Source of the DNA: Halomicrobium mukohataei DSM 12286
GTDB taxonomy: Archaea > Halobacteriota > Halobacteria > Halobacteriales > Haloarculaceae
Direction of reading: 5' to 3'
NCBI RefSeq assembly: GCF_000023965.1
Contig: NC_013202.1
Span: 2,100,001 to 2,132,000, forward strand
DNA length: 32,000 nt
Numbering within the stretch: the stretch's first letter is position 1; each line of letters begins with the position of its first letter. Both the position numbers and the translations under genes were made by a program. Below the pieces are notes generated by a model that was not told the origin of the DNA, searched no databases, and was given only the letters and a program-made list of their open reading frames with translations. Shown here piece after piece: positions 1,509 through 24,016 of this stretch.

Positions 1509-1997
1509 CTACGCTTCGGCAGCGTCCAGCAGGATGTCGTCGTACTCGCCGGCATCGACCTTCTGCTTGAAGTCGCGGGGGTTCTCGCCCTCGATGGTGA
1601 CACCCAGCGTGACGCAGGTGCCGACGACTTCCTTCGCGGCGTTTTTCGTGTCGTACGCGAGCAGGTCGGTCTGCTTTTGCTCGGCGATCTGTTTGATCTG
1701 GTCGACCGAGAGATCGGCGACGAACTCCTCGTGGGGTTCGCCGGATCCGGTGTCGAAGCCAGCTTCGTCCTTGATGAGTTCGGCCGTCGGCGGGACGCCG
1801 ACCTCGATCTCGAAGGAGCCGTCGTCGTCGTAGTCGACGGTGACGGGCACTTCGGTGCCGTCGAAGGCCGCGGTCTGGTCGTTGATCTCCTGGACGACTG
1901 CCTGCACGTCGACGGGGGTCGGCCCCAACTCCGGACCGAGGGGCGGGCCAGGGTTGGCCTCGCCGCCCGGAACGAGCACTTCGATAGTTCCAGCCAT
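1509..1997 (-). CDS. rpl11: 50S ribosomal protein uL11 (L11)
   Basis: The internal ATG at 1995-1997 of ORF 1509..2177 gives MAGTIEVLVPGGEANPGPPLGPELGPTPVDVQAVVQEINDQTAAF... (162 aa), the canonical L11 N-terminus. The upstream 60 aa of the ORF are Arg-rich junk. A TATA-like TTAAAA lies about 30 nt upstream (around 2022-2029). Confidence 0.95.
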   Translation of the reverse strand: MAGTIEVLVPGGEANPGPPLGPELGPTPVDVQAVVQEINDQTAAFDGTEVPVTVDYDDDGSFEIEVGVPPTAELIKDEAGFDTGSGEPHEEFVADLSVDQIKQIAEQKQTDLLAYDTKNAAKEVVGTCVTLGVTIEGENPRDFKQKVDAGEYDDILLDAAEA

Positions 1998-2173: not shown

Positions 2174-2259
2174 TCATACGGAAAGTTGTAGGTCTTTACC
2201 AGATCGACCGCACGCCGTCGTGCGGTCGACTGGGTAAACGCCTACAACGGTCCGTATCA
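2174..2259. repeat. 86-nt long-hairpin element, copy A (conserved termini TCATACGGA..GTTGT / ACAAC..TCCGTATCA)
   Basis: Four stem segments total 32 bp: 2176-2182/2251-2257, 2185-2192/2241-2248, 2195-2200/2233-2238 and 2204-2214/2219-2229, with loop CCGT. The element overlaps the TGA stop at 2257-2259. Its termini are shared with 12912-12995. Confidence 0.7.
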
Positions 2260-2457
2260 GGCGAGGTTGACGCCGTTCATCGCCAGGAAGTCCGAGGCCG
2301 CCTTGATCTCCACTGGCGAACCGATGATGCGGACCTGTGTGCCCTCCTCGCGTACCGTCAGCGTAAACTCGCGTTCGAGATCTTCGCGGATGCCGTCCAG
2401 GGCAGCGGCTGGCAGGAGGATCTGCGTGCTGTCGCGAAACCGGTCGGCACTTGCCAT
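2257..2457 (-). CDS. small acidic hypothetical protein (66 aa)
   Basis: The ATG at 2455-2457 gives MASADRFRDSTQILLPAAALDGIREDLEREFTLTVREEGTQVRIIGSPVEIKAASDFLAMNGVNLA, with halophile-like acidic composition and GC-rich third positions. The 2460-2630 region upstream is AT-richer and promoter-like, so the 126-aa GTG-start version is unlikely. Confidence 0.6.
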   Translation of the reverse strand: MASADRFRDSTQILLPAAALDGIREDLEREFTLTVREEGTQVRIIGSPVEIKAASDFLAMNGVNLA

Positions 2458-12911: not shown

Positions 12912-12995
12912 TCATACGGAACGTTGTAGTTGCTTATCGGTGAGCGTCGCACGGGGTAGACGCTCACCGGGACATTCCGACAACCGTCCGTATCA
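12912..12995. repeat. 84-nt long-hairpin element, copy B (same termini as 2174-2259)
   Basis: The outer arms are TCATACGGAACGTTGT (12912-12927) and ACAACCGTCCGTATCA (12980-12995). The inner stem is CGGTGAGCGTC 12938-12948 / GACGCTCACCG 12959-12969. The element overlaps the TGA stop at 12993-12995. Confidence 0.7.
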
Positions 12996-21469: not shown

Positions 21470-22738
21470 TCAGAGGATCACCGCGAGCGTCACTGCGGTC
21501 GCGCCGGCCAGCAGCGCGAGGCTCCAGAGCGCCACTCTGACCGCGAAGCGACGGTCCGGACTCGCGATCGTCAGGCCGGCTTTCACCGCGATGCTCGCGG
21601 CCGTCGCCAGCAAGATGGCGATCGTCGCGGTGTTCGAGTCGACGGCACCGCCCCGATAGAGCAACACCGCCGAGGTGGTGCCCGCGCCGCTGGAGACCAG
21701 CCCCGACAGCAGCGCGGTCAGGTACAGTCCGCCGGTACCGAACTGGGCTCTCGCGACCGTGCTCGCCACCAGAACGACGAGGAAGATCCCGCCGAACACG
21801 AGCGCGTTGCGGAGCGAGAACGGACTGTCGAGTTCCATCTCGACCGACTCCGTCCAGTCGGCGGTGTAGGCCGCGACGGCGACACTCCCGATCGCGACGG
21901 CACCGAGCGGGACGATCGACTGATAGAGGATCCCCCGCTCGAACGTGAACGCGATCGCGATGACGAGATTCCGCAGCGCCATGGCGGCGTCGGCCAGCAG
22001 GATCGCCGCCAGGGCGTAGCTCGCGGCGGCCGGCCGCTGGCGGACGTGATCGAGCATGGTCCCGACGACGGCCGTCGAGGAGGCCAGCCCGCCGAAAAAA
22101 CCGGTCACCGCGATGCCCCGTCCGCCGTAGGTCTGGACGATCGCGTAGTTCGCGATGCCGATGCCCGCGACGGTGACGACGAGCAGCCACGCGACGCGCA
22201 ACTCCAGTTCCAGGGAGAGCTCCCCGACCGAGACCGGGACCGGAGCGGCGGGCAACAGCGGGTAGACCACGAACGCGAGGATCGCGAACTCCGTCGCAGA
22301 GCGCAACTCGGCGCGGCTGAGACCCCAGGCGAAGCTGTGGAGTTCGCGTTTGAGCACCAGCAAGAGCGACGAGAGAATCGCGACGGTCACGCCTTCGAGG
22401 ATGTACGACTGCATCACGAGCGCGCCGACGCCGTAGGCGACCAGCATCGAGACGGAGGTCGTCAGGGACAGCCCCGCCGCCTCGTCCCTGAACCCCTCCG
22501 CCGCCAGCAACACGCCCTGGACGATGACGAGCAGGCCGCCGACCACGAGCAGGCTGTCGGCCTCGACGAGCGTGAAGACGGCACCGAGCAGGCTGAGGAG
22601 GGCGAACGTGCGGATCCCGGCGGACTTCTGGGACCACTCCCGTTCGATGCCCAGGAACATCCCGAGGGCCGCCGCGAGGACGATGCGCCCCACCTCGTCG
22701 CCGACCGGACTCAGTCCGAGTGTCGTCAGCGCGATCAC
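21470..22738 (-). CDS. MgtC/SapB-family membrane protein with DUF4010-like C-terminal half
   Basis: An in-frame GTG at 22736-22738 gives VIALTTLGLSPVGDEVGRIVLAAALGMFLGIEREWSQKSAGIRTFALLSLLGA.... It is about 422 aa and highly hydrophobic. The upstream 122 aa of the 544-aa ORF overlap the divergent gene and promoter and are rejected. A TTTAT box lies about 25-30 nt upstream of the GTG, which suggests a leaderless mRNA. Confidence 0.8.
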   Translation of the reverse strand: MIALTTLGLSPVGDEVGRIVLAAALGMFLGIEREWSQKSAGIRTFALLSLLGAVFTLVEADSLLVVGGLLVIVQGVLLAAEGFRDEAAGLSLTTSVSMLVAYGVGALVMQSYILEGVTVAILSSLLLVLKRELHSFAWGLSRAELRSATEFAILAFVVYPLLPAAPVPVSVGELSLELELRVAWLLVVTVAGIGIANYAIVQTYGGRGIAVTGFFGGLASSTAVVGTMLDHVRQRPAAASYALAAILLADAAMALRNLVIAIAFTFERGILYQSIVPLGAVAIGSVAVAAYTADWTESVEMELDSPFSLRNALVFGGIFLVVLVASTVARAQFGTGGLYLTALLSGLVSSGAGTTSAVLLYRGGAVDSNTATIAILLATAASIAVKAGLTIASPDRRFAVRVALWSLALLAGATAVTLAVIL

Positions 22739-22773
22739 GGGTACCGCATCACGCGCCTGGCATAAATCTCCGC

Positions 22774-22798
22774 GGTCGGTCCGTGTTCCGGACCGACC
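22774..22798. promoter_or_regulatory. 10-bp perfect inverted repeat GGTCGGTCCG-tgttc-CGGACCGACC between divergent promoters
   Basis: It is located between the TTTAT box of the MgtC-family gene (around 22762-22767) and the T7 tract (22805-22811) about 24-30 nt upstream of the AI-2E ATG. Confidence 0.4.
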
Positions 22799-22834
22799 CC
22801 GACCTTTTTTTCGGGGTCCATCGAAAACGGTGCT

Positions 22835-24016
22835 ATGGTCGAGTTCGAGTTCGATGTCGACTGGCCACGAACTGCGTGGGTCGCCCTGGGGTTCGTGCTC
22901 GCCGCCGCCCTCGTCTTCGTCGCCTATCGCTTCGTCGGGACCTTCGTCTTCGGACTGTTCGTCTACTACGCGACCCGGCGGCTCTACCGCCGGGTCCGGC
23001 GACGGATCGAACAGCCGTCGGTCGCCGCGGGCGTCTCGCTGGTCGGGATGGTGCTTCCGGCGCTCCTGTTGCTGGCCTACACGCTCGGGATCGCCCTCCA
23101 GCAACTGAGTCGCTTCGCCGACGAGATCGACGGTGCCGGGTCCGGGAGCCAGATCGAGGACCTGCTGGCGATGGCCGATCCGTACCTGAACCTGACGGTG
23201 TTGAGCGATCCGACGGCGCTGCTGGACAACCTCGGCGGCGTCGGGACGATCACGACGACGCTCGAATCGGCGCTTGGCTACCTCGGAGTCGTCGGCACGG
23301 GACTCTTACACCTGTTCGTGATGCTCGCGCTCGCGTTCTACCTGCTCCGGGACGACCGCCGGTTCGCGGGCTGGGCCGGCCACCTGACGGCAGAGCGCAC
23401 CGTCTTCGAGGAGTTCGTCGCTGCCGTCGACGAGAGCTTCGACAAGGTGTTCTACGGGAACATCCTGAACGCGATGATCACGGGGCTGGTCGGTGGCATC
23501 GTGTACACGCTGCTCAACCAGATCGCGCCCGCGTCGGTCGCCATTCCGTACGCGGCACTGGTCGGCGTGCTCGCCGGTGGGGCGAGCCTGATCCCCATCG
23601 TCGGCATGAAACTGGTCTACGTTCCGATGGCGGCCTATCTCGCCGTCCTGGCGGGGACCAGCGGCGAAGGGTGGTGGTTCGTCGTCGCCTTCGCCGCGGT
23701 CAGTTTCGTCGTCGTCGACGTGATTCCGGACCTCCTCGTGCGGCCCTACGTCTCGGGCGGGGAACTCCACACCGGTGCGCTGATGTTCGCCTACATCCTC
23801 GGGCCGCTCATCTGGGGATGGTACGGCATCTTCCTCGGTCCGATCGTGCTGGTGTTGGTCACGCACTTCGCACGGATCGTCCTGCCGGAGCTGGTGACCG
23901 ACGAACCGATTCGCGCCAGAGAAGTCGATCCGGCCGCGTTGACCGGCGACACCGACGGCGCGGACGCCGTCGGCGGCGAGAGAGACGGCGACGAGGGCAC
24001 ACCAAGCGGGGCCTGA
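22835..24016 (+). CDS. AI-2E family transporter (PerM/UPF0118)
   Basis: 393 aa and polytopic, with GNILNAMITGLVGGIVYTLL, GGASLIPIVG and YILGPLIWGWYGIFLGPIVLV, which are typical of the AI-2E family. Confidence 0.88.
   Translation: MVEFEFDVDWPRTAWVALGFVLAAALVFVAYRFVGTFVFGLFVYYATRRLYRRVRRRIEQPSVAAGVSLVGMVLPALLLLAYTLGIALQQLSRFADEIDGAGSGSQIEDLLAMADPYLNLTVLSDPTALLDNLGGVGTITTTLESALGYLGVVGTGLLHLFVMLALAFYLLRDDRRFAGWAGHLTAERTVFEEFVAAVDESFDKVFYGNILNAMITGLVGGIVYTLLNQIAPASVAIPYAALVGVLAGGASLIPIVGMKLVYVPMAAYLAVLAGTSGEGWWFVVAFAAVSFVVVDVIPDLLVRPYVSGGELHTGALMFAYILGPLIWGWYGIFLGPIVLVLVTHFARIVLPELVTDEPIRAREVDPAALTGDTDGADAVGGERDGDEGTPSGA

Follow-up and report, generated by a model that had tools for sequence, protein, structure and literature searches.

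A haloarchaeal MITE family with T-N-A target duplications, frequent landing on TGA stop codons and a probable IS630-type partner

INTRODUCTION

Among the closest described counterparts of the element discussed here are RUP of Streptococcus pneumoniae (with IS630-Spn1), MITEEc1, and the plant Stowaway elements (with Tc1/mariner). All are short, non-coding hairpins with terminal inverted repeats that occur in many copies, often beside genes, and that are mobilised in trans by a DDE transposase of the IS630/Tc1/mariner type whose ends they mimic. Canonical IS630/Tc1/mariner elements duplicate the dinucleotide TA at their target, and RUP, MITEEc1 and Stowaway do the same. Three-base-pair T-N-A duplications, by contrast with TA, are classically made by elements of the IS1031/IS427 and PIF/Harbinger types; they accompany the short foldback MITEs of Tourist/mPing (PIF/Harbinger) and of the IS1031 group (IS5 family). 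Duplications other than TA are known within the IS630-Tc1-mariner group; for example, the Fot transposons of its pogo superfamily have TAA duplications (Gao et al. 2020, PMC7386202). For haloarchaea, the main text of Dyall-Smith et al. (2011, PMC3119063) describes three classes of transposase-free mobile repeats in Haloquadratum walsbyi—MITEs, SMRs and PATEs—that outnumber the transposons, and the MITEs among them can be mobile with no intact partner in the same genome.

The elements described in this paper form a real MITE family of the Haloarculaceae, with two noteworthy features: a 3-bp T-N-A duplication, probably the work of an IS630-type clade, and a habit of landing on TGA stops. They resemble RUP, MITEEc1 and Stowaway in form, copy number and proximity to genes; mobilisation in trans by an IS630-type enzyme would be a further likeness. 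They differ in having an archaeal host, in lying on TGA stop codons in about 60% of cases, and in duplicating a T-N-A triplet instead of TA, with an ancestral-looking TA just inside the ends (TSA followed by TA-CGG). Fot belongs to the same super-group and likewise makes a 3-bp duplication instead of the canonical 2-bp TA (PMC7386202), but Fot elements are fungal, autonomous and large, with the duplication fixed as TAA, whereas the haloarchaeal IS and MITEs are prokaryotic and leave the middle base free (G, C, T and A are all seen). Tourist and the IS1031 group share the T-N-A duplication and the foldback form, but their ends are unrelated to those of the haloarchaeal MITE, so that the same outcome appears to have been reached via a different enzyme. 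The H. walsbyi repeats have different sequences, SMRs and PATEs lack a duplication, and no family that has TACGG ends or lands on stop codons is described for Haloquadratum in the main text of PMC3119063. A search of the accessible literature found no paper on this MITE family or on prokaryotic IS630 elements with T-N-A duplications.

THE HAIRPIN BEHIND THE VNG_1110C-LIKE GENE

By ‘the window’ we mean the whole 32-kb stretch of the Halomicrobium mukohataei DSM 12286 genome that was analysed, numbered from its first letter. Its features, with the evidence for each, are as follows.

1509..1997, minus strand: rpl11, downstream on the same strand as the 66-aa gene; context, outside the element (ORF list and sequence)
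2174..2176, no strand: left copy of the target-site duplication, TCA (direct reading; a single TCA in the empty site GGCG-TCA-GGCGAGG of two relatives, G001 and G005)
2177..2256, no strand: MITE core, subfamily A, TACGGAAAGTTGTAGG...CCTACAACGGTCCGTA (fold; about 37 near-identical copies in the genome)
2257..2259, minus strand: right copy of the target duplication (TCA), which is the TGA stop of the 66-aa gene (sequence)
2257..2457, minus strand: gene for a VNG_1110C-like small protein of 66 aa, whose stop codon is the insertion target (Pfam PF24397)
12912..12995, no strand: second MITE copy of the window, subfamily C, 84 bp including its TCA duplications (sequence and fold)
22518..22520, no strand: unoccupied target site, TGG here (flank mapping; exact 3-nt gap relative to H. 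katesii)

The element at 2174-2259 reads TCA-TACGGAAAGTTGTAGGTCTTTACCAGATCGACCGCACG-CCGT-CGTGCGGTCGACTGGGTAAACGCCTACAACGGTCCGTA-TCA. The original prediction described it as a near-perfect 86-nt hairpin, and folding agrees: as RNA in a 106-nt context its MFE is -64.6 kcal/mol, where dinucleotide shuffles average -33.9 (z -8.6) and 0 of 200 reach that stability, and the opposite strand gives a z of -7.7. For the isolated 86-mer, RNAfold gives 35 pairs arranged as four helical segments, with CCGU as the loop and a 2x2 internal loop of AA against GG, closely similar to the predicted 32-bp stem of four segments with a CCGT loop and an AA-GG mismatch. The subfamily-A core is thus a foldback over its whole length, with an apical stem of 11 bp and the loop CCGT, and it contains no oligo-T tract. 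Direct reading likewise bears out the TCA at both ends and the TACGGA/TCCGTA repeat just inside. The right TCA (2257-2259) is indeed the TGA stop of the minus-strand gene, as had been noted, and that gene matches PF24397 (VNG_1110C-like) with an E-value of 9.5e-32 over residues 1-66 of 66. The element was also thought to fill the space before the rpl11 promoter, which is not quite so: 176 bp remain between it and the rpl11 start at 1997. The rpl11 region itself is conserved in all eight relatives of the genus.

Two further observations concern the window. Directly past the element on the gene strand (2159-2176, minus) lies a weak terminator-like stem, TGACGCCGTCGACCGTCA, followed by the T-rich CTGTTTGCTG; the stem incorporates the left TCA duplication. 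The termini recur at 12912-12995, as predicted: this copy has the outer 20 nt in common with that at 2174-2259 and differs in the inner stem, its right TCA (12993-12995) is again the stop of a minus-strand ORF, one ending in GADD, and H. katesii carries it at the orthologous place.

On the comparisons set out below, the element at 2174-2259 is very probably a MITE: an 80-bp non-coding foldback bounded by TACGG...CCGTA.

A FAMILY OF MORE THAN ONE HUNDRED COPIES

The original prediction counted a two-member family and did not recognise the element, because that first reading saw only 32 kb. Searched with one mismatch allowed, the 3.33-Mb H. mukohataei genome (G000) contains 90 forward and 91 reverse sites for the end pattern ATACGGANNGTTGT, where the reversed control gives 2 and 0. 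Filtering for full hairpins, defined by the presence of both ends together with complementarity of the arms, leaves a catalogue of 117 full copies. The TACGG type, which falls into three main subfamilies, A, B and C, accounts for about 95 of them; a further 21 belong to a sister TACTGCC type, equal in length, with the ends TACTGCCGGCTGT. A more generic end, TNA followed by TAC-N7-TGT, occurs as 170 left and 165 right ends. The cores measure 78-80 bp and have no capacity to encode a transposase. Their terminal inverted repeats are TACGGA...TCCGTA, arm-to-arm identity averages 0.78 over 38 nt, and every subfamily includes copies in both orientations relative to the gene.

Several variants accompany the main family. 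Examples of the sister family, all outside the window, lie on C1 of G000 at 1470445-1470529, 2336059-2336143 and 929546-929630; its ends are TACTGCCGGCTGTAA...ACAGCCGGCAGTA, it likewise has a T-N-A duplication, and it numbers at least 21 copies. A third MITE variant has the ends TACTACCGGCTGTAAATC. One copy of the sister or variant type is nested within a TACGG-type copy in another genome, G015, with a TAA duplication. Within subfamilies A and B the apical loop occurs in either orientation while the arms keep the same one (GCCACGGAGTA versus TACTCCGTGGC; CCGT versus ACGG), as at C1 570544 versus 220649 and 2029247 versus 265727 of G000; this flip-flop suggests recombination or template switching across the palindrome. 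Around 32500-32700 on the 222-kb replicon of G000 (C2), a CRISPR array with the repeat GCTTCAATCCCACAAGGGTCCGTCTGAAAC gives a false match to the MITE end pattern.

TARGET DUPLICATIONS, EMPTY SITES AND DISTRIBUTION

Throughout the family, the copies are laid out as T-S-A, then TACGG...CCGTA, then T-S-A. Of the 117, 54 have G and 60 have C as the middle base, and in about 110 that base is identical on the left and the right. An inverted repeat would give the complement on the second side; the same base on both sides therefore marks a target duplication. The rpl11 locus shows the unfilled state directly. Where G000 has GGCG-TCA[element]TCA-GGCGAGG, the site is empty in G001 and G005, where it reads GGCG-TCA-GGCGAGG (GGCGTCAGGCGAGG). 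The longer sequence of these two genomes, GGCG-TCA-GGCGAGGTTGACGCC, equals that of G000 without the element and with a single TCA. The element is missing from G006 as well; the VNG_1110C-like orthologues of all three end at the same TGA. H. katesii (G002) and G003 each carry one element at the locus. The insertion postdates the split of the G000/G002/G003 lineage from that of G001/G005/G006.

The element of G003 at this stop codon is a different variant, 72/86 identical in flanks that are 94% identical, and is closest to the G000 copy at C1:2356493. It could be an independent re-insertion at the same site, a replacement, or the product of conversion between copies.

A broader comparison used 1.4 Mb of the sister species H. 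katesii (DSM 19301), with the flanks of its 86 copies mapped onto G000. Thirty copies are shared, 28 are absent from G000, and the remaining 28 received no call. Each of the 28 absent copies corresponds to a gap of exactly 3 nt in G000, and in 25 of them the triplet there equals the duplication. The empty sites hold TGA or TCA and no TA. At GGTC-TCA-GTCGG, which is empty in G000, H. katesii has two tandem copies sharing a TCA. One of the 28 empty sites lies in the window itself, at 22518-22520, where H. katesii has a subfamily-A copy with TGA flanks within an ORF for a membrane protein (21470-23104, minus; ...LLVIVQGVLL...). By adding 83 bases the copy would put the H. katesii orthologue out of frame, and the gene is probably broken in that species.

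The distribution of the family is patchy. Matches per strand to the end pattern TSATACGGNNNNTTGT, of which there is roughly one per copy, number about 91, 180, 22, 6, 1, 1, 0 and 0 in eight species of the genus, and about 28, 100 and 175 in other genera. Beyond the genus, copies turn up again in a small number of genera from the same taxonomic family; the rest of the 60 relatives are almost free of them.

The case for mobility is wholly comparative. On that footing, transposition may be pictured as follows. A DDE transposase would make a 3-nt staggered cut at a T-N-A target, mostly T-G/C-A in the context GAC-TGA-GAC; because the cut is staggered by 3 nt and the gaps are then repaired, the triplet would come to stand on both sides of the element. 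For the copy at 2174-2259 the target was the TGA stop of the VNG_1110C-like gene, which retains a stop codon, now followed at once by a strong hairpin.

TARGET CHOICE AND STOP CODONS

When the copies are aligned by the orientation of their triplet, the target has an asymmetric consensus, GAC-TGA-GAC(GG), and the element occurs in both orientations relative to it. A folded logo had given the appearance of a palindromic target with C-TSA-G symmetry, which the asymmetry of the triplet-oriented alignment rules out.

The duplication is the TGA stop of a called gene in 69 of the 117 copies (about 60%). These statistics rest on our own, crude gene calls, from a self-trained codon-usage caller that gave 3157 genes. 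Stop codons make up 11.8% of the TGA/TCA sites outside coding sequence, the null by simple site count. When sites are given weights from a PWM of the target context, itself derived from the intergenic copies, the expectation becomes 18%, and the binomial probability of the observed 69/117 is about 1e-20. The 28 young insertions found only in H. katesii divide into 12 at stops, 10 intergenic and 6 in coding sequence; the shared, older copies divide into 19 of 30 at stops and 11 elsewhere. Coding insertions vanish with age. Since 12 of the 22 young non-coding insertions lie at stops (p 1.5e-4), the bias is already present in young insertions. It would seem to be partly an intrinsic targeting of GAC-TGA and partly a purging of harmful insertions. 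Asp followed by a stop is common in the acidic proteomes of these haloarchaea.

The abundance of hairpins behind stop codons invites a reading in which the hairpin would be above all a structure with a function, as RNA or as DNA, selected at the 3' ends of genes as a terminator, a stabiliser of mRNA or an insulator before the rpl11 promoter, with its repetition explained as the recruitment of a useful module. The hairpin is very stable on both strands; some 60% of copies begin exactly at a stop codon and would be transcribed into 3' UTRs; the weak stem and T-rich tail at 2176-2159 stand just outside the element on the gene strand; and older shared copies lie at stops somewhat more often (19/30) than young ones (12/28). 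Against these points, the orthologous spacers of G001, G005 and G006 have no such hairpin, species of a single genus carry anywhere between 0 and 180 copies, both orientations relative to the gene occur in every subfamily, and copies lie also inside coding regions and far from stops. The element has no oligo-T tract of its own, and Rfam 15 gives no match at gathering score in the 32-kb window. Covariation between the arms, which might be taken as evidence for an RNA, disappears on inspection: interior arm-to-arm identity is 0.72 within copies and 0.72 between copies, leaving no signal beyond a foldback origin, and the differences among subfamilies are explained by such an origin from different variants of IS ends. 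We consider a primary role in RNA unlikely.

The original prediction had held that a MITE and a conserved 3'-end RNA fitted the layout equally well. Its MITE half is upheld by the duplication, the empty sites, the patchiness and the existence of a cognate IS; its RNA half, taken as the primary nature of the element, gives way before the spacers without a hairpin, the absence of an Rfam match and the use of both orientations. A secondary effect of the hairpins on the ends or stability of mRNAs is possible, because most copies would be transcribed as 3' UTRs.

A CANDIDATE IS630-TYPE PARTNER

H. katesii contains an IS that has similar ends and the same type of duplication. It is 1142 bp long (the ‘1.14-kb IS’), reads TGA-TACGGTCGTGCATTAGTTTTTACTGG ... 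GCACGACTGTA-TGA, and is present in at least four copies that are 99.7% identical. Its transposase matches PF13358 (DDE_3; E 1.1e-33) and, in the N-terminal HTH part, PF13565 (HTH_32; E 1.2e-13), and has RefSeq relatives that are annotated as IS630 family transposases. The IS is laid out as two overlapping ORFs (HTH and DDE_3), and its ends are TGA-TACGGTCGTGC...TTTACCGG, with the consensus TAC(G/A)GTCGTGC...TTTACCGG. In H. katesii a frameshift divides the first ORF of the IS (67 + 165 aa), and the two-ORF layout is intact in Natronomonas aquatica, Natribaculum and Halovenus; the frameshifted copies may have lost activity, may depend on recoding, or may reflect errors of a draft assembly.

The IS occurs in H. 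katesii, N. aquatica and two Halobacteriales metagenome genomes, and the homologues in N. aquatica and the metagenomes have 87-94% protein identity, the same ends, and flanks of TCA/TCA or TGA/TGA. Altogether, six intact insertions of the TACGG-ended IS in four genomes have identical T-S-A flanks. More distant members (75-81%) in Halovenus, Natribaculum, Halorubrum, Haloferax, Natrialba, Natrinema and Natronococcus have TAGTG... ends and identical T-N-A flanks, including one TTA/TTA. Across the clade, 19 of 23 insertions have identical T-N-A flanks and 4 are mismatched. One of the mismatched copies, at C1:2656853-2657994 of H. katesii, has the triplets TGA and TCA; its flanks correspond to C1:2172701 and C1:2291075 of G000, 118 kb apart, which indicates an IS-mediated rearrangement distinguishing the two species. 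No full-length IS copy had an orthologous empty site that could be aligned to G000.

MITE and IS ends have in common the blocks TACGG (positions 1-5) and TTTACC(G/A)G (19-26), to which subfamily B adds GTGATC (27-32); the core at 2177-2256 has the first two, the second as TTTACC(A/G)G. The similarity is limited to these short blocks: MITE and IS ends are identical at 16-21 of 34 positions, and the left and right ends of the IS itself, to a similar degree, at 21-24 of 34. The palindromic character of the MITE over its whole length would most simply be a foldback of one IS end, and from such an origin the paired differences among subfamilies would follow without selection at the level of RNA.

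Insertion activity follows the IS. H. katesii, which has it, shows 28 lineage-specific and 30 shared copies, and G000, which does not, shows 2 and 31 (Fisher odds ratio 14.5, p 2e-5); more copies have been gained in the IS-bearing species than in the IS-free one. The metagenome G080 (Halobacteriales QS_5_68_33, 71% complete), whose transposase is 91% identical, matches the MITE end pattern about 175 times on each strand, equivalent to about 175 copies. IS and MITE are not always found together: G000, G003 and G015 have MITEs without the IS, and G124 has the IS without these MITEs. Neither blastn nor tblastn finds a trace of the partner IS in the H. mukohataei genome.

The duplication departs from the canonical IS630 pattern. 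It is 3 bp in the MITE, and not the TA dinucleotide by which IS630/Tc1/mariner elements are recognised; because it is T-N-A rather than TA, the assignment requires a clade in which the spacing of the cuts has been altered. Weighing the ends, the flanks and the lineage-specific gains together, we infer that the family is probably mobilised by a partner of this IS630 clade. The enzyme would most probably have been supplied in trans by the 1.14-kb IS; since that IS is now absent from H. mukohataei, the approximately 120 copies there would be stranded.

OTHER TRANSPOSASES AND ELEMENTS

Candidates for a partner within H. mukohataei itself were also considered and rejected. Paired MITE ends 120-6000 bp apart proved to be neighbouring MITEs only, together with one cargo element of 1134 bp (C1:2289081-2290214), and yielded no autonomous copy and no transposase. 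This last element has the ends TCA-TACGGACGGTTGTAG ... CCGTCCGTA-TCA and encodes an ArsR/HTH_20-like regulator and a DUF7509 protein but lacks a transposase gene; it could be a non-autonomous transposon with cargo, or else an insertion could have split a MITE. The repeat families found when the genome is compared with itself by BLAST (ISH-type, about 935, 1000 and 1400 bp) have unrelated ends and duplications of 7-9 bp, as do the PF01609 elements. The sole trace of an IS630 element in this genome, at C1:72.7-73.9 kb, is degraded, with the ends GTACGTAAGGG and a TA duplication; the relic (72700-73870) contains frameshifts and sits in the transposase gene of an ISH8-like, IS4-family element. In G015, the IS630 elements have the ends GAGTGGTC or GGTGGAGGTCG, unrelated to the MITE, and all solo MITE ends are truncated copies.

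The 3-bp T-N-A duplication and foldback form, which recall Tourist/mPing and the IS1031-derived MITEs, would suit a MITE of the IS5-family IS1031/IS427 type or of the PIF/Harbinger (Tourist-like) type, were there an enzyme to match. PF13586 (DDE_Tnp_1_2) is found in 0 of 61 haloarchaeal genomes, MITE-rich ones included, in a search whose controls did match, and PF13359 (DDE_Tnp_4) is not found in the one genome searched for it, that of H. mukohataei. Such an origin has moreover to compete with an existing IS630-type element that has matching ends and makes the same duplication, and we regard it as very improbable.

Least credible of all is a REP/REPIN-like or PATE-like palindrome moved as single-stranded DNA by a Y1 transposase (IS200/IS605 or RAYT-type), for, although the elements are hairpins over their whole length of about 80 nt, numerous and mostly extragenic, in organisms rich in IS605-type elements and PATEs, such palindromes as defined in the main text of PMC3119063 have neither a target duplication nor terminal inverted repeats, whereas the MITE duplicates a triplet derived from the target, its middle base varying by site, uses both orientations and leaves 28 exact 3-nt empty sites in the comparison. 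The strand-specific insertion beside a fixed short motif that would be expected of REP/REPIN or PATE elements is likewise not seen.

WHAT THE FAMILY MEANS FOR HALOARCHAEA

A family of MITEs, an ordinary form of selfish DNA, moved by an IS630-type element thus remains the reading that we prefer, and the copy at 2174-2259, which sits on the stop codon of the gene preceding rpl11, is an insertion both old and harmless. What is new is a plausible IS630-type partner linked to a MITE with a T-N-A in place of a TA duplication. Rather more tentatively, a clade of haloarchaeal IS630 elements may have exchanged the TA hallmark for a 3-bp T-N-A, with an intrinsic preference for GAC-TGA-GAC, so that TGA stops, often preceded by Asp, would serve as safe landing pads; in some species MITE hairpins would then lie behind about 2% of genes, and some of them might perhaps have been co-opted as stabilisers of mRNA 3' ends or as terminators.

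For annotation, the 120-150 or so strong hairpins of this genome, and the up to 180 of its relatives, should be masked as MITEs rather than recorded as terminators, small RNAs or regulatory palindromes. For the biology of the family, the bias towards stop codons lets insertions be nearly harmless, and the 28 loci at which H. katesii and H. mukohataei differ amount to a natural experiment on what an 80-nt hairpin at the stop codon does to the 3' ends of archaeal mRNAs.
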